Sequence record: NC_133255.1
Reading direction: 5' to 3' (one strand)
Length of the DNA: 64,000 bases
Source: Escherichia phage vB_EcoS-26175I
Under the pieces are notes generated by a model that did not search any database, had not been told where the DNA came from, and saw only the letters and a list, made by a program, of their open reading frames with translations. The first letter of the stretch is position 1, and every line of letters starts with the position of its first letter. The translations under genes were made by a program, and so were the position numbers. Positions 5,285 through 39,854 of the stretch are shown here, one piece after another.

Positions 5285-5348
5285 TTCGAAAATCCTACAT
5301 ACAAGAAAACCCCAGACTACCTATTCAATAGCTGGGGTTTATTATTAA

Positions 5349-5648
5349 TTAGATAATTTCGACAATATCCTGAGTTACAAAACCGTCGAATTCATCAGAG
5401 ATACCACCTGTAAAGGTGATGCCCATAATCATTGCATCCATCTTTTTAATCTCCGAGATTTTCATACCTGCTTTACTATTCTTATAGTATTTGCGAGGAT
5501 TCCCACACATCCAACAAGAACAGATGCAAGGAGTGGTAGTGATAATGCCTAACCGCTTAGGACTTTCTTCATGTGGGAAGACTGTCCAATACTTTTTGCG
5601 ATTGTTTTTCACACGTTGCCGGTGATGGCGTCTTAATGCTCGATCCAC
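5349..5648 (-). CDS. hypothetical Cys-containing small protein
   Basis: 99 aa ORF with CICSCWMC. Confidence 0.3.
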   Translation of the reverse strand: MDRALRRHHRQRVKNNRKKYWTVFPHEESPKRLGIITTTPCICSCWMCGNPRKYYKNSKAGMKISEIKKMDAMIMGITFTGGISDEFDGFVTQDIVEII

Positions 5649-5729: not shown

Positions 5730-6098
5730 TTATATCGCCTGAGTAAATGTACGACTAATAACGTCGTTCTGTTGTTCACGCGTCAATGCGTTAAATCGAA
5801 CAGCATAGCCAGAGACACGGATGGTCAACTGAGGATATTTTTCAGGATGTTTCTGTGCATCCAAAAGCTGATCACGGCTTAACACATTGACATTTAGGTG
5901 CTGACCACCCTCGACTTGAGGAACCACTTCCACATCTACAATGCGAAAGGCCTCAGGGTCAAAGTGAGGTGTGATACCTTCTAGATCTTCGACTAGAACT
6001 TTCTGTTTAAGTTCACCATCTTTAGAATATAGTTGAATGATCTGATTGTTATGAACAATGTTAATTACGCCAGACTTAAGACTTTGATATGCTTTCAT
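5730..6098 (-). CDS. grcA: autonomous glycyl radical cofactor (GrcA/YfiD-like)
   Basis: C-terminus [12 protein letters not shown]...[27 protein letters not shown] carries the glycyl-radical RVSGY motif and closely matches enterobacterial GrcA. Confidence 0.85.
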
Positions 6099-6462
6099 TA
6101 GATCTCCCTGATGTTAGAATTTGGCTCAGCTTTTTGTTAACCCAGAAGCAAGATAAAAACTGGAAGGCAGGCTTGCTTATTAAGTGAATACCCGATAATC
6201 GCTCGTAGTCCGGCTTGTGGATTGATAGTCCCATTCAGTTTAATAAGCACAGGAGCTTTGATTTTAACGTTGCGATCTCCTGGTCTGTTGCAACTACGTG
6301 ATTGCTCACGCTAAGACAATGGCTATCTAAAGTCCTAGCTTCTACATTTATACTCCTGGATAGCATGGAGTTGCAGTCTACTTCCTGCTGTCACGCCCGG
6401 CCATTTATAGAATGTGGACTCTCTTCTCAGCAGGATCTGGTACAAAGACCTGATCCTCTGTT

Positions 6463-6538
6463 TGGTAGTTAGTAGTGGATTTGAACCACTGTAGTCGCCC
6501 CGTATGAAGGAGGTGCATAACCACTCTGCCAACTAACT
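6463..6538 (-). tRNA. tRNA-Met/Ile2 (anticodon CAT)
   Basis: minus-strand cloverleaf: T-arm agtgg-atttgaa-ccact, 7-bp acceptor, anticodon loop ttCATac; TGG (CCA rc) encoded. Confidence 0.55.
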
Positions 6539-6544
6539 ATAATT

Positions 6545-6620
6545 TGGTACTCCGAGTTGGAATCGAACCAACGTTTGACGATTATCGGTCGCCCGTTCTA
6601 ACCTATTGAACTATCAGAGC
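6545..6620 (-). tRNA. tRNA-Ile (anticodon GAT), loop ccGATaa with C33
   Basis: T-arm gttgg-aatcgaa-ccaac, acceptor pairs with GU, D-arm gttc/gaac; anticodon loop has C at position 33. Confidence 0.55.
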
Positions 6621-20952: not shown

Positions 20953-21921
20953 ATTGATTCCTTTTGTTAGGTATTTTTAAGAACTCTCGTAAAAGTCCTT
21001 AAAGATACCCGGCGGTAGGTAGGGTCAGCCCCCTCAGATTAAGCTCTGCAGCCCTTCCGTCAGACAATATCTTCCAGTTTAAGTCAGGGTGACTTTGTGG
21101 TTATTCAGCTAAGGCTGATCGGCAGCTCTTAGGTCATGACTCCTCGTCGCTCTTTACTCACCGGCTAGGAAGTTATCTCGAGTTCTTCCTAGCTCTTTAG
21201 TCGTGCCATTAAGGTGCCTTCTAAGAGACTTACCTTTTCCCACTTTCGATTTGGGCATGTATCAGGTAAGGGTAGCCAAATCAGCATCCTAGTCCTACGG
21301 GGTCTCATCAAATTACATACCACCGCTTTTCGATATGTAATGCCCATGTCTATACGGGAGAAGAAAATGGGCATCTTTCTCTTCGTCTGATAGCTTGAAA
21401 AACGACTCCTCATGGAGGAAAAACTTCACTATCTAGGCTAAAGCCTAAAGTTCTTCTTTAATCCGGCAAAGCAAAACCGTAGTATATACTTTTCAGGAAT
21501 GGTTGGTTAGTCTGGAACCAACTACCGCGTGGTTTTGGCAGTGCACAGCTGCCTGCGATTGCTTCGCCATTAGAAGCACCAGTTATCCAACTCTTTCCGA
21601 CCGTGGGACTCGAACCCACATCTTCAGGCGGTGAAGCCCTAATAATACCTATTATACTAGGACGGCAGTGTTGTTACATAAGTGGTTTCGGCACCCCACT
21701 AACATAAACTAGAGAAGAGTTTACGAGATTTCGGGACAGCTCCCGAGTTTTCCGCAGATTTTCAGTTCCCTATCAATAGCAATAAGCGTTAGCTCGTAGC
21801 CTCTCTCAGAGTACTTACTAGTCTCCAACTCACCGACTCTATTCAGTGGAATAGCTATCCTAGTAGGAGTCACTAAACTCACTCAGCGTAATCGGCTCGC
21901 TGTTCTCTAATTTATGAATCT

Positions 21922-32201: not shown

Positions 32202-34592
32202 TTACAGGTTACAACCGCCTGATGCACAACCTGCTGCTTCTTCACCAGCTCCACCACCATTTTCAGTGTTGAAGTTAGCGTAGTACCAAGTTTTCCAACC
32301 GTACTTAACAGCAGTCATAAAGTCACGAACTACTACTGGGCCAGGAATTACCTCATTCTCAAACTTAGTATAGTCATAGTACATATTCGTACTGATAGAC
32401 TGGCTAAAGAATTTCTGCATAGTTGCTACCCATTTGATCCACTCGATACGATCTACATCATAAGCCAGTTTATAGCTCATTAATGTATCCCAATCGGTTG
32501 CACCTGGAGCAATTGCAATTACTTTATTCACTGCACTACCCTTGATAGATACAATCTTACGAGGTGGTTCAATAGAGTTAGTAACACCTAGCAGTACAGA
32601 GGAACTTTCACCCGGCATCTGAGCAGTCAGAACAGAGTTGCGCATACCATATTTCAGAATATCTGCACGCAGAGATTCCCAATCCATTTCTAGACCTACA
32701 GTTACCAGTTCATCAACAGTTTTCTTGTACGTGTCGATTACCAGAGTTCCTTGCGAAGGCTTAGTACGATTAAACCAGTCACATGCACCTTGTTCTTTAG
32801 CCAGACGTACAGAGGCTTTATGCAGGAAGTAGGACAGCTTTTCAGCTTCACGGTGAATCCAGTTACGAGCTTCAACACCTTCGTAAGCCAAACCTTCTGC
32901 TGCCATTGCGCCTGCTGCGTTCATCAGACCAATACCAACGTTACGACGTTTCTTAGCCGTGTACTCCATAGTTGGGAATGGGTAATCCTGAATCTCGATG
33001 ATTGTATCAACGAATTTCAGAAGAATGTAGCAAGTTTTCTCCCATTCAGCCAGAGATTCCATGCGACCTAGCACAACACCACCTAAGTTACACAGAGATA
33101 CTTCACCAATATCTTCTGGACGCATATCATCTAACTGATCTTGGGTCTTATACAGTTCCGTAATATGGTGGAATGGGCGAGTTGGCTGAGTAATTTCAAC
33201 ACAAAGGTTGGTCATACGAATCGGGTCAAGGAAGTTACCATGACGGTTAGATTCACCAATGTGATGAGCATACATACGCCCTGTTTCCATACGGATACGT
33301 AACCAAGTATCTAGGATTTCTTTTGCAGAGATTCTAGGAGCTGCTGGAATTGTTTTTCCTTCATGGTCGATCTTTGTAAGAGATGCCACACGTTTCTCCG
33401 CTGCCACGTAGATTTCTTCAAACTTAGCCTCATCTTCGCCATAAAACGCTTCATGAACTTCTGGTGCGTAGAAGTAGGACATTAGCGTAATATCTTCGTT
33501 TTTCAGGTAACGTTTTAACAGAAGGTTGTTAAAGCTCAGAGAGTAATCCATCTTATCGATTTTATTCTCGTCTGTAGCACGTTGTTGTTTAACCTGCATC
33601 AACTGAATGATTTCAGGATCGAAGTATGGATAAGACACAGTAGCAGAACCGCCACGGGTTTGCTGAGTGTTAGCTTTTACTGATCGGTCAATGTGTCGAT
33701 AATATGGCAGTTTTCCGGAATGCGGGAATGCCCCATTTCGCACCGGATCAGCAATTGATCGGCTTTCAAGATGATACCCGATTCCCGCTCTGGCTGCGAC
33801 CATTTTGAAGACGATGTGCTCGGCTGTGTCGATTGAATCGAGCGTGTCAGTGGAATCCACGAGGCAGCAACTAGCAAATCCACGGTCACTAGAGCGCAGG
33901 CCAACCAGTGGCGGCGTAGGAACGTTGATTTTGTGGAGTGACATTGCATTGTAGAGGTCGATTGCATCTAGAATTGTCCAGTTAGGTTGAGATAACATCG
34001 CCATTGCCATACCCATGTAGGCAAACTGCGGGGTTTCATAAATTTCACCAGTTGCAATATTACGACGAGAATACTTGTCGAAGAACTGTTTCAGTCCACC
34101 ACTAGTGAATAAACGATCGCGATCATGATCAATAACTTGGTTCAGAGCGTCAAACTGATCATCGCTAATCCATGCACTCATATTTTCCCAAGCGCCAACA
34201 CGAACCATATGATCGTGGAAGAAACGCAGAGAAGGTGGTTCGAAGGAATCATATAGGCGTTTACGCATCTGCGCAAGACGTAATTCCTTCGCTACAGTAT
34301 CATATGCTGGATTGTCTTTGATAAGACCTTCAGCAGCTTTAATTAACACATCTTGGAGTGTATCGGAGTCTACAACACCTTTGGGTAGATTTTTCAGGGC
34401 AGCCATAACTACGGCAGACCAACTTACGTCAGTATCTTTACATGCCCATGCAGCCCAATCATTGAGTTTTTCAGGAGCAAAGTCCTGAACAGTACCGTCA
34501 CGTTTAATTACTTTTTCTATGCGATGGCTCATTTGGCTTTCCTTTTTGTAGTTATCAGGATTTAAATAGTATTCTACTTTATTCTCAGTCAT
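32202..34592 (-). CDS. nrdA: ribonucleotide reductase class Ia alpha subunit
   Basis: 796 aa; ATP-cone N-terminus, C-terminal Cys pair ...GCASGGCNL. Confidence 0.9.
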   Translation of the reverse strand: MTENKVEYYLNPDNYKKESQMSHRIEKVIKRDGTVQDFAPEKLNDWAAWACKDTDVSWSAVVMAALKNLPKGVVDSDTLQDVLIKAAEGLIKDNPAYDTVAKELRLAQMRKRLYDSFEPPSLRFFHDHMVRVGAWENMSAWISDDQFDALNQVIDHDRDRLFTSGGLKQFFDKYSRRNIATGEIYETPQFAYMGMAMAMLSQPNWTILDAIDLYNAMSLHKINVPTPPLVGLRSSDRGFASCCLVDSTDTLDSIDTAEHIVFKMVAARAGIGYHLESRSIADPVRNGAFPHSGKLPYYRHIDRSVKANTQQTRGGSATVSYPYFDPEIIQLMQVKQQRATDENKIDKMDYSLSFNNLLLKRYLKNEDITLMSYFYAPEVHEAFYGEDEAKFEEIYVAAEKRVASLTKIDHEGKTIPAAPRISAKEILDTWLRIRMETGRMYAHHIGESNRHGNFLDPIRMTNLCVEITQPTRPFHHITELYKTQDQLDDMRPEDIGEVSLCNLGGVVLGRMESLAEWEKTCYILLKFVDTIIEIQDYPFPTMEYTAKKRRNVGIGLMNAAGAMAAEGLAYEGVEARNWIHREAEKLSYFLHKASVRLAKEQGACDWFNRTKPSQGTLVIDTYKKTVDELVTVGLEMDWESLRADILKYGMRNSVLTAQMPGESSSVLLGVTNSIEPPRKIVSIKGSAVNKVIAIAPGATDWDTLMSYKLAYDVDRIEWIKWVATMQKFFSQSISTNMYYDYTKFENEVIPGPVVVRDFMTAVKYGWKTWYYANFNTENGGGAGEEAAGCASGGCNL

Positions 34593-34898: not shown

Positions 34899-35660
34899 CT
34901 ACACCTTCCCCATATCCTTAAAGATATCGTAGAATGCTTTAGACTCTGGTGAGCGAACGTTGTCGATCAGTTCGATCATAGAGAAAGGAGAGTTTTCGTA
35001 CTTCTCATAGACTTCCATAAGAAGTGCTAGACCTGAATCACCCTTGATGTCTTTCTGAGCTATATCCCCACAGATAATTAAACGACAATCTTGTCCTACA
35101 CGAGTCAGGAGACAGATCATTGCTTCAACGGAGATATTCTGAGCTTCATCGACAATTACATAGGAGTTGTTGAAAGTTCGGCCACGGGCATGTTCGATAG
35201 CCAGGAATTTGATTTTCTGACGTTCGACATATCCTTTGTAGGCGTGATCACCGATTGCCCATTTCATGCCATCGGCTATTGGTTCCAACCAAGGTTCTAG
35301 CTTTTCTGCTAGATCACCTGGGAGCATACCAAGAGATTTACCTAGAGGTTCGTTCGGACGCACGAGGATCACTTGCTCAATATCTGAGTGAATGTCTACG
35401 AGTTCCTGAGCTGCAAGAACGGACGGAATAAAGGTTTTACCAGTACCTGGTTCACCGATACCCACAGTCACTGTGTTGTTCTTGATCATATTGATATATG
35501 ATTTTTGCTCACGGTTTTTACCAACTAGGGATTTAGCAACTGGATTGGCGTAATCACCAGAGAAATCTGCTTGAATTACGTTACTCTCGTACTTGTTGCC
35601 ACGCTTTCTTGAACCATTGCGGTTCTCTCTTTTTTGACGTGCTTTTCCCATAAATAACAC
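34899..35660 (-). CDS. phoH: PhoH-like ATPase
   Basis: Walker A GIGEPGTGKTF and Walker B VIVDEAQN. Confidence 0.7.
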   Translation of the reverse strand: MLFMGKARQKRENRNGSRKRGNKYESNVIQADFSGDYANPVAKSLVGKNREQKSYINMIKNNTVTVGIGEPGTGKTFIPSVLAAQELVDIHSDIEQVILVRPNEPLGKSLGMLPGDLAEKLEPWLEPIADGMKWAIGDHAYKGYVERQKIKFLAIEHARGRTFNNSYVIVDEAQNISVEAMICLLTRVGQDCRLIICGDIAQKDIKGDSGLALLMEVYEKYENSPFSMIELIDNVRSPESKAFYDIFKDMGKV

Positions 35661-36003: not shown

Positions 36004-37878
36004 ATGAATCGCAATGAAGAACTAAAGTATAAAGGAATGCAGTCCTTGATTCGAAACTGCAAAGAAATTATCGAAGGTTCAGCAGATGAAGAGCTGCTGT
36101 TTAATAATGCCAATAAGCCCTCAGAACGTTTCCCTACACAAAGGGATATGCTTGCAGGGGAATTGAGTAAATATCTGATTCTGGAAGAAATGCCAATCCA
36201 GATTCGAAATGCTCACATGATTGGTGATATTCACTTCCATGATGCTGATTACGCTGCGTTAGGTATGACTAACTGTTGCCTGGTTGCTTTGGAAGATATG
36301 TTGAAGAATGGTATGAAGGTTGGTAATGCTGAAATCAGTACACCAAACTCTATTACTACTGCGGCTGCTATCACAGCTCAGATTATCACTCAGGTTAGTT
36401 CACATCAATATGGTGGTACTTCTGTAGACCGATTAGATGAAGTACTGGCTCCTTATGTTCGTAAGTCTTATGATAAGAATCATGCGTTTGCAAAACGTTG
36501 GACTAAGGATGAAGCCAAAGCATCTGTAATGGCTACGGAAATGACTGAGAAAGAAGTTTACGATGCCTGTCAGGGCCTGGAGTATGAAATCAATACGATG
36601 TTCAACTCTAATGGTCAGAGTCCATTTATTACCTTTGGTTTTGGTCTAGGAACTTCCTGGGAAGCACGTCTTGTACAGAAAGCAATCTTAGAAGTGCGTA
36701 TGGATGGTTTGGGTATCAATAAACGTACAGCTATCTTCCCTAAACTGGTATTTGTTTTGCGTGATGGCGTAAACATGAAACCTGGTGATGTTAACTATGA
36801 TATCAAGAAGTTAGCTATGAAATGTACTGCCGAACGTATGTACCCCGACTATATCAGTTATGATAAGGTTGTAGAAGTTACTGGTGACTATAAAGTCTCT
36901 ATGGGTTGTCGTTCATTCCTGGCTGCTGCGGAAGATGGTGAAACTTCTGGTCGTAACAACTTAGGCGTTGTTTCCGTAAACCTTCCTCGAATCGCTATCG
37001 AAGCAGAAGGAAATATTGATCTATTCTTCGATCTGCTTGAGCTGCGTGTGGATACCGCGTTAAAAGCATTGGAGTGGAGGGTTGATCGCTTAAAATACAT
37101 TCAAGCTAAAGCTGCGCCCATCCTCTATATGTCAGGAGCCTTTGGATTACGTCTGGGACCCGATGAATATGTATTTGATCATTTCTACAAGCGTGCTTCT
37201 GTATCTCTAGGATATATTGGTTGCCACGAAATGTTGCAGCTCATGTTTGGTAAAGATGTAGATACAATGTCTGAGTCTTGTATCAAGTTCGTTCAACGTG
37301 TGCTACAATATATGCGTGATCGTGCTGATCAGAAGAAGGAAGAGACTCAGTTAGGTTATAGTCTGTATGCTACACCATCTGAATCTCTGTGTGATCGCTT
37401 CTGTCGTCTAGACCGTGAGTACTTCCCAGAGCATGAGGATATTCTGGCTAAAGGATACTACACTAACTCCCATCACCTTGATGTAGAACGTAAGGTTGCT
37501 CCAAATGTGAAATTTGATTATGAGTCTAACTTTACTCCTATTGCTTCTGGTGGGTGCATTTCCTACGTGGAATTACCTGACATGAAGAAATTCCCAGATG
37601 CCCTAGAATGGGTAATTAACTATGCTGCAAGTAAAGTTCACTACTTTGGTATTAATACTCCAGTTGATTCTTGTGGTGAGTGTGGATTCTTAGGCGAAAC
37701 AATTGCTTCTGAAGATGGATTTAAATGCCCAATTTGTGGCAACCATGATCCTGAGACTCTTGAGGTAACACGTCGTGTTTGTGGGTACCTTGGTAATCCA
37801 GGTGCACGCCCATTTAACCCAGGTAAACAGCATGAGGTTATGGGACGAATCAAGCATGCAGATGTAAGAGCTAAATAA
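36004..37878 (+). CDS. nrdD: anaerobic ribonucleoside-triphosphate reductase (class III)
   Basis: 624 aa; C-terminal Zn ribbon CGECG...CPICG and glycyl radical motif RRVCGYLG; consensus promoter and RBS upstream. Confidence 0.9.
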   Translation: MNRNEELKYKGMQSLIRNCKEIIEGSADEELLFNNANKPSERFPTQRDMLAGELSKYLILEEMPIQIRNAHMIGDIHFHDADYAALGMTNCCLVALEDMLKNGMKVGNAEISTPNSITTAAAITAQIITQVSSHQYGGTSVDRLDEVLAPYVRKSYDKNHAFAKRWTKDEAKASVMATEMTEKEVYDACQGLEYEINTMFNSNGQSPFITFGFGLGTSWEARLVQKAILEVRMDGLGINKRTAIFPKLVFVLRDGVNMKPGDVNYDIKKLAMKCTAERMYPDYISYDKVVEVTGDYKVSMGCRSFLAAAEDGETSGRNNLGVVSVNLPRIAIEAEGNIDLFFDLLELRVDTALKALEWRVDRLKYIQAKAAPILYMSGAFGLRLGPDEYVFDHFYKRASVSLGYIGCHEMLQLMFGKDVDTMSESCIKFVQRVLQYMRDRADQKKEETQLGYSLYATPSESLCDRFCRLDREYFPEHEDILAKGYYTNSHHLDVERKVAPNVKFDYESNFTPIASGGCISYVELPDMKKFPDALEWVINYAASKVHYFGINTPVDSCGECGFLGETIASEDGFKCPICGNHDPETLEVTRRVCGYLGNPGARPFNPGKQHEVMGRIKHADVRAK

Positions 37879-37977: not shown

Positions 37978-38196
37978 ATGGCAAAAGTACCACAAGAATT
38001 TACGGATGGAATTAAGGCAGATCTAGATGTAATGCTAATGGCCCAATGGGAGTCTGGCTTCCGAGATGGAATTGATTGTTGTGTGGCCGTGCTCGATACT
38101 ATTAGTTGGCAGCTTATTCAATCTGGAAATGATGCAGAAGGCAACCTTCTAGCTAACCTTTCTAAACAAATTAGGGAAATGAAATGCGCAGATTAA
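37978..38196 (+). CDS. hypothetical small protein
   Basis: SD GAGAGGAG before ATG 37978; promoter 37920-37948. Confidence 0.3.
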   Translation: MAKVPQEFTDGIKADLDVMLMAQWESGFRDGIDCCVAVLDTISWQLIQSGNDAEGNLLANLSKQIREMKCAD

Positions 38197-39035
38197 TTAT
38201 TGTTAGTGGTGCAGGTTTGAGTGTAGACAGTGGTGTTCGTGCTTTCCGTACTGATACTTCTAGTGGAAAATCTTTGTGGGATGAGTACGATCTAGAGGAA
38301 GTATGTAGCTTGCCTAACTTTGAAGCTGGCTTCCGTCGCTTCTGTGGTGAAGATGATCCTAACTACTTCAGTGCTCGTTTCCCTGGCATTGATGAAGATG
38401 GTAACGATCTGTATCTCAAGACTCATGAGTTCTACAACATGCGTCGTCAGGAATTACAGACTGTTGAGCCTAACATTGCCCATCTGCGAATTGCAGAATG
38501 GTTCCAGCGTTATGGTGCGGATAGCGTGAAGAACTTCACTACTAACGTTGATGACCTTCTGGAACGTGCTGGTATCCCTCGTGATGAAATCATCCATGCT
38601 CACGGATACTTGAAAGAGGTGATCTATCGTCGGGGTCGCAATCAAATCATCGAAGATGTTGGATACACTGCAATTGTTCCTGAAGATTACGAATGGGTAA
38701 AACCAAACGTGGTGTTCTTTGGTGAGACAGCTCCGTGGTACATGGGTCAAATCAACCTGTTTGATACTCTTACTAGCAATGACATGGTTATTGTGGTGGG
38801 TTGTAGTAACCAAGTTATCAACTTCAACTGGGAATTATTTCCTGCTGTATGTCGTGGAACTAAGATGATGGTTGTTAACCCACAAGTTCGTTATGACGAG
38901 CAGCTTGAGTATGAGAAACGTGGTGTTACTGTATGGCGTGCTGGAGCTGCCGAAGTTTTTGGTAACAAGCATTTCATTGATCAAGTTGAAGCCTTTATGG
39001 AAGGAACTATTTATGCACCAGAAAAACATAGGTGA
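38184..39035 (+). CDS. Sir2-family (sirtuin-like) NAD-dependent protein, no zinc-ribbon module
   Basis: GAGLSVDSGVRAFR (cf. GAGISxxSGIPxFR), TTNVDDL, HAHG, KPNVVFFGE, VIVVGCS; the four Zn-binding Cys are absent. Confidence 0.6.
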   Translation: MRRLIIVSGAGLSVDSGVRAFRTDTSSGKSLWDEYDLEEVCSLPNFEAGFRRFCGEDDPNYFSARFPGIDEDGNDLYLKTHEFYNMRRQELQTVEPNIAHLRIAEWFQRYGADSVKNFTTNVDDLLERAGIPRDEIIHAHGYLKEVIYRRGRNQIIEDVGYTAIVPEDYEWVKPNVVFFGETAPWYMGQINLFDTLTSNDMVIVVGCSNQVINFNWELFPAVCRGTKMMVVNPQVRYDEQLEYEKRGVTVWRAGAAEVFGNKHFIDQVEAFMEGTIYAPEKHR

Positions 39036-39175: not shown

Positions 39176-39361
39176 ATGGTGAAGAAGATTTTTAAGGGTA
39201 TCTGGAAAGGTCTAGTATGGTTTGTCAACCTAATTGGTATGATTACCATTTATTCTCTGTTCCTATCTGTTATGTGGGGTAAAGGTGAACTGAAGGTTCC
39301 GGTTCCTTTTACTAATGAAGTTAAAGTCTGGACGTGGGATGCTACTGGTGGAAATAAGTAA
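39176..39361 (+). CDS. small membrane protein
   Basis: 61 aa with one TM helix. Confidence 0.3.
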   Translation: MVKKIFKGIWKGLVWFVNLIGMITIYSLFLSVMWGKGELKVPVPFTNEVKVWTWDATGGNK

Positions 39362-39854
39362 TACTCCTGTGATTTTCCTGGATATTGATGGGGTGCTCAA
39401 TTCGAGCATCTCTCACCATCATGCTCCAGATAATGAAAAGCTGTTCTTTGGCAGTGATTGGGTTTATAAACCGTTACTCCAGGCTTTTCAGAACTTCCTT
39501 AAACCTTCTCCAATAATGATTGTTGGGGTATCTTCATGGTTTTCTGTACGAAACGAGATGGAGAACGTTCAGATTATGACCGGGCTCGGTTTGATCGATC
39601 GTTTTCTTGGTACAACAGATTTTACTGGTGGCGGTTTATCTCGTGGTAATTCTGTCTTACGTTTCGTAGAAAAACATAAGCTCAAGCATTGGTGCGTCCT
39701 AGATGATGCTGGTGCTATGATGTATCAATTTCCTACTGTTATTGTAAATGGCAGGACTGGAATAAACTTTCAAGATTTAAATGCTATCAGCTATACGCTG
39801 GAATTTAGTCCAGATCTTGAAATGTGTAAGGCTCTTCAGAAACTCAAGGTGTAG
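39339..39854 (+). CDS. HAD-superfamily phosphatase (possible nucleotidase)
   Basis: HAD motif I FLDIDGVLN near N-terminus. Confidence 0.5.
   Translation: MLLVEISNTPVIFLDIDGVLNSSISHHHAPDNEKLFFGSDWVYKPLLQAFQNFLKPSPIMIVGVSSWFSVRNEMENVQIMTGLGLIDRFLGTTDFTGGGLSRGNSVLRFVEKHKLKHWCVLDDAGAMMYQFPTVIVNGRTGINFQDLNAISYTLEFSPDLEMCKALQKLKV

Follow-up and report, generated by a model that had tools for sequence, protein, structure and literature searches.

The GrcA-like gene of Escherichia phage vB_EcoS-26175I is located on the minus strand, on the margin of the tRNA cluster of the phage, within the 64,000-nucleotide stretch of sequence record NC_133255.1 that was analysed here and is referred to as the window (Table 1). 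It corresponds, in reverse complement, to positions 38092-102091 of the genome of Escherichia phage vB_EcoS-26175II (MK907268; Demerecviridae, Epseptimavirus); over the 2-kb region that surrounds the gene, the identity to this genome is 100%. The same region is matched by approximately 449 records of T5-like phages. The genes for tRNA-Ile and tRNA-Met are positioned upstream of the GrcA-like gene on the same strand. The start codon is preceded by a Shine-Dalgarno sequence, and a ribosome binding site is annotated at the equivalent position in the records of phages BF23 and Shivani.

The orthologs of the gene in phages T5 and BF23 are T5.056, annotated as 'putative acetyltransferase-related protein, IPR001150', and 'ORF trn 2.21, putative formate acetyltransferase', respectively. 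The annotated unit of T5 and BF23 is composed of promoter P11, a small ORF, tRNA-Ile, tRNA-Met, the GrcA-like gene, an ORF of approximately 100 codons, and a rho-independent terminator. The order in the window is the same, with tRNA-Ile and tRNA-Met followed by the GrcA-like gene, a 99-aa ORF, and a hairpin at the position where the terminator is annotated in T5 and BF23. An automated scan for promoters and terminators returned nothing above chance, and missed the hairpin because its loop is longer than 8 nt.

Table 1 Features of the GrcA-like locus and the nrdD gene in the window.
Feature	Position	Strand	Basis
GrcA-like glycyl-radical CDS	5730..6098	minus	ATG-to-stop ORF, 122 aa plus stop
Divergent N-terminal half, codons 1-60	5919..6098	minus	hhalign, vs.6 alignment, dN/dS, AlphaFold2
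Glycyl-radical domain, codons 61-122	5733..5918	minus	Pfam, PDB matches, AlphaFold2, Foldseek, conservation
Gly97 codon, predicted radical site	5808..5810	minus	sequence, alignments to 6owr and 1h16, invariant column
Shine-Dalgarno GGGAG, 5 nt upstream of ATG	6104..6108	minus	sequence
tRNA-Ile	6545-6620	minus	ARAGORN, Rfam, T5 annotation
tRNA-Met	6463-6538	minus	ARAGORN, Rfam, T5 annotation
99-aa ORF, GTG start, ortholog of T5.055 / BF23 'trn 2.22'	5349..5648	minus	PHROG 4499, E 2.7e-39
Rho-independent terminator-like hairpin	5303..5337	minus	sequence: CCCCAG, 16-nt loop, CTGGGG, TTTTCTT
nrdD, class III ribonucleotide reductase	36004..37878	plus	Pfam NRDD E 4.6e-172, own Gly_radical domain

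The 99-aa ORF is probably transcribed together with the GrcA-like gene. Its product has a basic N-terminus and a CxCxCxxCGNPR motif with four cysteines (CICSCWMCGNPRK). The corresponding family, PHROG 4499, carries an annotation without function and is represented in approximately 430 T5-like records, with remote matches in unrelated phages of Erwinia, Vibrio, Serratia, and Psychrobacter. In the MK907268 record, two 53-aa ORFs are called at this place, the downstream one of which is the C-terminal part of the 99-aa ORF.

In Epseptimavirus, tRNA-Met and the GrcA-like gene are separated by 364 nt (6099-6462) in which no credible ORF is present; this spacer is flanked by the similar short sequences AACAGAGGATC and ATCAGGGAGATC; the gap in T5 is 13 nt. 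At least 147 phage records cover at least 80% of the spacer at roughly 83-100% identity, and other records contain only its 3' 140 nt. The spacer has no Rfam match, and its folding energy is ordinary (z -0.2). Phage faergetype carries a further insertion of approximately 230 nt in this spacer, with a 65-aa ORF. Elsewhere in the tRNA region, a 'tRNA-Sec (tca)' is annotated at positions 80425-80498 of MK907268 (approximately 21594-21667 of the window), which could be a suppressor-like or mis-called tRNA.

The GrcA-like protein contains the motif R94-V-S-G97-Y-A-V-R-F and, over its 122 residues, no cysteine. Alignments to structures 6owr and 1h16 identify Gly97 as the counterpart of G102 of GrcA and G734 of PflB. 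The glycyl-radical domain is composed of a β-strand, a helix, the Gly loop, and a helix at the C-terminus. Its 62 residues share 52 identities with TdcE, 49 with GrcA, and 47 with PflB of E. coli. A BLASTP comparison with GrcA of E. coli K-12, proposed in an earlier note on this DNA, aligns 74 residues, 55 of them identical (E 1e-37), and bears out the C-terminal match and the RVSGYAVRF motif described there. The 122-aa ORF with its glycyl-radical features is real, far beyond chance.

Profile and structure-database searches place the protein in the GrcA family. The Pfam Gly_radical model matches residues 62-103 (E 4e-18). A sequence search of the PDB returns YfiD/GrcA (6owr) over residues 50-121 (E 2.2e-29) and the C-terminus of PflB (1h16) over residues 61-121 (E 1.6e-26). 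The match to PHROG 1209 spans the full length, with residues 1-122 aligned to profile positions 1-121 (E 7.2e-47). The NCBIfam equivalog model for GrcA, TIGR04365, gives 118.3 bits against a cutoff of 170 bits and aligns to residues 54-121 alone. By NCBI's rule, the protein thus counts as a diverged relative of GrcA and not as an equivalog, and the score below cutoff, confined to these residues, points to strong divergence of the N-terminal half. The models of the short GrcA2/GrcA3 proteins (NCBIfam NF008341, NF038360) give 116 bits for GrcA3 and 90 bits for GrcA2, both below their cutoffs of 158 and 145. The radical domain aligns to these models end to end, but GrcA2 and GrcA3, at approximately 80 aa, do not have the N-terminal half of approximately 60 residues that is present in the T5-like protein.

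The structure of the phage protein was predicted by AlphaFold2 from a 64-sequence alignment, with a mean pLDDT of 76.8. The C-terminal half is formed by a helix (residues 75-83), a hairpin with strands 92-95 and 98-101 flanking Gly97, and a second helix (residues 107-117). The best Foldseek match of the predicted fold in the PDB is the NMR structure of YfiD (6owr; E 2e-5, 80% identity), with a TM score of 0.75 over the 60-residue target chain. Behind it rank CutC, diol dehydratase, and further glycyl-radical enzymes, whose radical domains match with rmsd values of 1-1.7 Å. The earlier note had named a different fold as the outcome that would speak against its assignment; the prediction returns YfiD. 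The protein has the architecture and fold of GrcA and matches the profile of PHROG 1209, the phage Y06I/vs.6 family. These results support its identification as a GrcA-type autonomous glycyl-radical protein, and the YfiD structure is the best match of its C-terminal half.

The N-terminal half is predicted to form β-strands, with pLDDT values of approximately 87-90 over residues 1-30 and approximately 75-82 beyond. A control prediction for GrcA of Pantoea has a similar β-rich N-terminal half with pLDDT values of 85-89, and the sheet was therefore rejected as a novelty of the phage protein. The predicted sheets are consistent with the N-terminal halves of the phage and bacterial proteins being diverged homologs. 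When these halves alone are compared by hhalign, the local alignment covers columns 35-61 (E 4.7e-6, probability 86%) and the global alignment has 30% identity (E 8.6e-6, probability 64%); the homology of the first approximately 35 residues to bacterial GrcA is weak. Residues 1-60 of YfiD are disordered in solution according to NMR, and are required for the binding of cPFL and for efficient activation (PMC8683613). The confident sheets predicted for the phage and bacterial proteins differ from the disorder observed in YfiD. We speculate that the N-terminal half of GrcA might fold only once it is bound to cleaved PFL. By analogy to YfiD, residues 1-60 of the phage protein would recognise cleaved PFL and aid activation.

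The gene is widespread among phages. A tblastn search with the GrcA-like protein matches 1,582 phage records, approximately 440 of which are T5-like at 80% identity or more. The remaining approximately 1,100 records, below 80% identity, are mostly T4-like, and are matched over the full query at approximately 50% identity; some of the T4-like records are annotated as vs.6 or autonomous glycyl radical cofactor. Jumbo phages are also found among the matches. Thirty-one columns are invariant across 64-66 homologs, and the Gly97 column is one of the invariant ones. In the segments that insert into the PFL core and in the core of the last helix, the protein has the same residues as PflB, and these are invariant or nearly so in the same homologs.

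The closest comparison among phages is with Y06I of T4, presumably the vs.6 product. Similarly to the T5-like protein, it is a stand-alone protein of approximately 120 aa that starts with MKAYQ and contains a glycyl-radical domain of the PFL type, and vs.6 of the T4-like phage AR1 aligns to the T5-like protein end to end, with 67 of 129 positions identical (52%, BLASTP E 5e-39). However, the resemblance between the N-terminal halves is loose (19/51 identical, with gaps). The T5-like gene belongs to a tRNA cluster, whereas vs.6 is located in the vs-regB region, and T4-like phages encode NrdG, which is absent from T5-like phages. E. coli GrcA (YfiD; TIGR04365 / IPR011140) has the same size, the same division into an N-terminal half of approximately 60 residues and a 62-residue radical domain, and a similar predicted secondary structure of the N-terminal half. 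The T5-like protein differs from it in being encoded by a virulent phage, with phage-like GC content and codon usage. The C-termini of PflB and TdcE are 76% and 84% identical, respectively, to the last 61-62 residues of the T5-like protein, which contains the strand β-10, the Gly734 loop, and the terminal helix of these enzymes, but lacks their catalytic barrel of approximately 700 residues with Cys418 and Cys419.

The GenBank labels of the gene in T5-like phages include 'hypothetical protein', 'pyruvate formate-lyase', '2-ketobutyrate formate-lyase', 'acetyltransferase', 'putative acetyltransferase-related protein', 'ribonucleotide reductase subunit', and 'glycyl radical cofactor'. For Citrobacter phage YZU-L1, the gene call is limited to a C-terminal piece of 67 aa. 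The label of a pyruvate or 2-ketobutyrate formate-lyase was rejected, since the protein has 122 residues and no barrel of approximately 760 aa with Cys418/Cys419; the formate-lyase profile TIGR01255 is matched only at positions 683-743 of 744, with 84 bits against a cutoff of 994. Because the catalytic barrel is absent, the formate-lyase, acetyltransferase, and ribonucleotide reductase labels are misleading. 'Autonomous glycyl radical cofactor (GrcA/Y06I-like)' would be the proper label for the T5-like gene. The name 'glycyl radical cofactor' is already in use in phages faergetype, beppo, and oselot, and 'autonomous glycyl radical cofactor' in KKP 3953.

Substitution rates were determined for orthologs from Epseptimavirus (the window and faergetype) and Tequintavirus (Shivani, EC105, NBSal003, and BF23). 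At a dS of approximately 0.35-0.55 between the two genera, the radical domain has a dN/dS of approximately 0.03, and the N-terminal half one of 0.09-0.20. Divergence of this extent at such low dN/dS indicates a long vertical residence of the gene in these phages, under purifying selection on both halves. Judging by dN/dS values of 0.03 in the domain and approximately 0.1-0.2 in the N-terminal half, and by its presence in approximately 440 T5-like records, the gene is functional.

A second glycyl-radical protein in the window is the class III ribonucleotide reductase NrdD, which the earlier note had recognised correctly. The gene is intact, with the zinc-ribbon cysteines and the radical motif RRVCGYLG. 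It is separated from nrdA (32202-34592) by phoH (34899-35660, minus strand). Many phages with nrdD and nrdAB and no nrdG have been published. The genome of this phage agrees with them, and its nrdA-phoH-nrdD layout is exactly theirs. Downstream of nrdD, the plus strand encodes a Sir2-family protein (38184-39035; Pfam SIR2, E 8e-22) and a HAD-type domain known from 'Swiss Army Knife RNA repair' proteins (39315-39854; PF18143, E 7e-19).

The phage does not encode a recognisable activase for its glycyl-radical proteins. When NrdG and PflA of E. coli and a T4-like NrdG were used as tblastn queries, no homolog was found in the complete 114,646-bp genome MK907268 (all E >0.8). A six-frame scan, run on the window and on the whole of MK907268, detected no plausible activase-sized ORF with a CxxxCxxC motif. 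The GrcA-like protein itself, having no cysteine, does not carry this radical-SAM motif either. The absence of an NrdG-like activase that had been reported for the window thus extends to the rest of the genome. The 99-aa ORF downstream of the GrcA-like gene is the only one with a CxxxCxxC motif. It was rejected as a partner activase, as it is too small for a radical-SAM enzyme, has no Pfam match, and is not found beside vs.6 in T4-like phages. Since homologs of PflA and NrdG are missing from the phage, host activases must be used, and its two glycyl-radical proteins would rely on the two activases of the host. NrdG and PflA are each specific for their own substrate, and NrdD is activated by NrdG and is not known to be activated by PflA.

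We consider it likely that the GrcA-like protein, as a member of the Y06I/GrcA family, serves as a replacement glycyl-radical piece for repairing the host's pyruvate formate-lyase after oxygen damage. The T4 protein Y06I is presumably the product of vs.6. The spare-part role is the best reading because Y06I rescues O2-cleaved PFL (Wagner 2001, as described in PMC8683613). In the account given in PMC8683613, it is the only phage protein shown to do so. Its family is presumably PHROG 1209. Biochemical validation as a spare part for O2-cleaved PFL exists for two proteins only, Y06I and YfiD (PMC8683613, PMC13450708, PMC12338860), and both are activated by PFL-AE (PMC8683613, PMC13450708). By analogy to these two proteins, we infer activation by PflA, rescue of PFL, and a benefit to the phage.

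According to the proposed mechanism, the gene would be expressed from the transcription unit of the tRNA region. The protein would bind host PflB that has lost its C-terminal 26 residues to O2 cleavage at Gly734, and may also bind the close paralog TdcE. The divergent N-terminal half would help to recognise the damaged enzyme, and the C-terminal 62 residues would replace the lost strand β-10, Gly loop, and terminal helix. The host activase PflA, using S-adenosylmethionine, would then install the radical on Gly97, from where it would pass to Cys419 of PflB so that catalysis could resume. T5-type infection involves host shut-off and degradation of host DNA. After the shut-off, the cell would be unable to remake PflB or to induce its own grcA. 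The phage would gain a continued supply of fermentative ATP and acetyl-CoA under the microaerobic conditions of the gut.

It is unlikely that the protein is a spare part mainly for TdcE, or for both formate-lyases, rather than for PflB specifically. The C-terminal 62 residues are closest to TdcE (52/62, compared to 47/62 for PflB) and share its tail, and the nucleotide matches in E. coli are tdcE and pflB. However, the residues shared with TdcE are also those of the consensus of GrcA proteins at large, from phages and bacteria, and therefore may not indicate targeting. Furthermore, PflB and TdcE do not differ in the core-inserting segments, and TdcE is a minor, threonine-induced enzyme. We regard with similar reserve the possibility that T5-like phages keep an old spare-part lineage, the diverged N-terminal half of which is tuned to a task beyond the simple repair of PflB. 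Such a task may involve TdcE or, after host shut-off, PFL that is intact or inactivated in some other way, or another glycyl-radical enzyme of the host. If this were the case, the tuned N-terminal half would be a natural variant for dissecting the enigmatic N-terminus of GrcA.

A decoy or modulator function, in which the protein titrates host PflA or binds intact PFL, and re-routes pyruvate or SAM-radical capacity, for instance to the activation of phage NrdD, instead of repairing the enzyme, appears very unlikely. The phage does have NrdD without an activase, and the N-terminal half has strongly diverged from that of bacterial GrcA. Nevertheless, NrdD needs NrdG, so the titration of PflA would be of no help to it. 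All residues required for insertion and radical chemistry are conserved under very strong purifying selection, and the characterised T4 member of the family is described in PMC8683613 as rescuing PFL, with no inhibition in that account.

The role of a spare glycyl-radical domain for oxygen-damaged enzymes had been suggested before, with both NrdD and PflB in view. The part that concerns PFL stands as the best reading, given the T4 Y06I family, whereas the link to NrdD is not supported. That the protein is a spare domain for the phage's own NrdD is highly improbable. GrcA-like genes co-occur with nrdD in both T5-like and T4-like phages, and reviews mention spare parts for other glycyl-radical enzymes that have been speculated about and not found (PMC8683613, PMC13450708). 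Nevertheless, the protein has no significant similarity to phage NrdD (BLASTP E 4.9), and this, together with its inserting segments of the PflB/TdcE type, leaves the NrdD role unsupported. The radical region of NrdD, RRVCGYLGNP, follows a CxxC...CxxC zinc site and differs from the Gly loop of the GrcA-like protein, which is approximately 76-84% identical to PflB and TdcE instead.

The earlier note had also suggested a recent capture of the gene from a host. Nucleotide identity, GC content, dS, and the domain tree are all contrary to this suggestion. In blastn searches against 5,426 complete E. coli genomes, only nucleotides 184-369 of the gene align, at identities of 75% or less, and the best matches in these genomes are pflB and tdcE, not grcA. 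When the last 186 nt are aligned by codons, they are 70.4% identical to grcA, 72.6% to pflB, and 73.7% to tdcE. The GC content of the gene, 40.7% (GC3 33%), matches the 39.9% of the window and not the 47.9% of E. coli grcA. In an unbootstrapped, and hence only indicative, neighbor-joining tree of the 61-aa domain, the T5-like domain is placed within a phage-rich group that includes the jumbo phages SE_PL, K64-1, and fHe-Yen9-03, apart from the group of Vibrio, Aeromonas, and enterobacterial GrcA. The possibility that the gene is a recently captured fragment of host grcA, a passenger or pseudogene without an adapted phage function, accounts for the glycyl-radical motif and the high protein identity to host proteins, but is already refuted, and deserves next to no credence, given a host nucleotide identity of only 70-75% confined to the 3' half, a phage-like GC content, dS of approximately 0.5 with dN/dS of 0.03-0.2 among T5-like genera, and conservation at the same locus in approximately 440 phage records.

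The vs.6 gene of phage AR1 has a sharply mosaic structure. Over the last 189 nt, including the stop codon, it differs from K-12 grcA at only 7 positions, and this 3' half (GC3 43%) is 96% identical to E. coli grcA in nucleotides and 60/62 in residues. The 5' half is of the phage type, AT-rich with a GC3 of 21%, and its identity to grcA collapses. The arrangement looks as if a phage gene had recently recombined with the 3' half of host grcA. In comparison with the T4-like domain, the domain of the T5-like gene is approximately 79% identical to E. coli GrcA in residues and 70% in nucleotides. Judging from these alignments, host-likeness by recent exchange is a property of T4-type phages and not of the T5-like gene.

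No relevant paper on GrcA or PFL of T5-like phages was found by literature search. Phage proteins of this kind have been known since 2001 (Wagner et al. 2001, cited in PMC8683613), and the T5-like gene is an ordinary auxiliary gene of an already known and annotated kind, which leaves current understanding unchanged. As an auxiliary metabolic gene of the phage, it would provide a 14-kDa replacement part for a 170-kDa host enzyme that is needed for fermentative energy and whose radical site is destroyed by traces of O2, and would keep this enzyme working. The T5-like proteins carry a naturally diverged N-terminal half on an almost unchanged radical domain, which would make them useful to GrcA biochemists.
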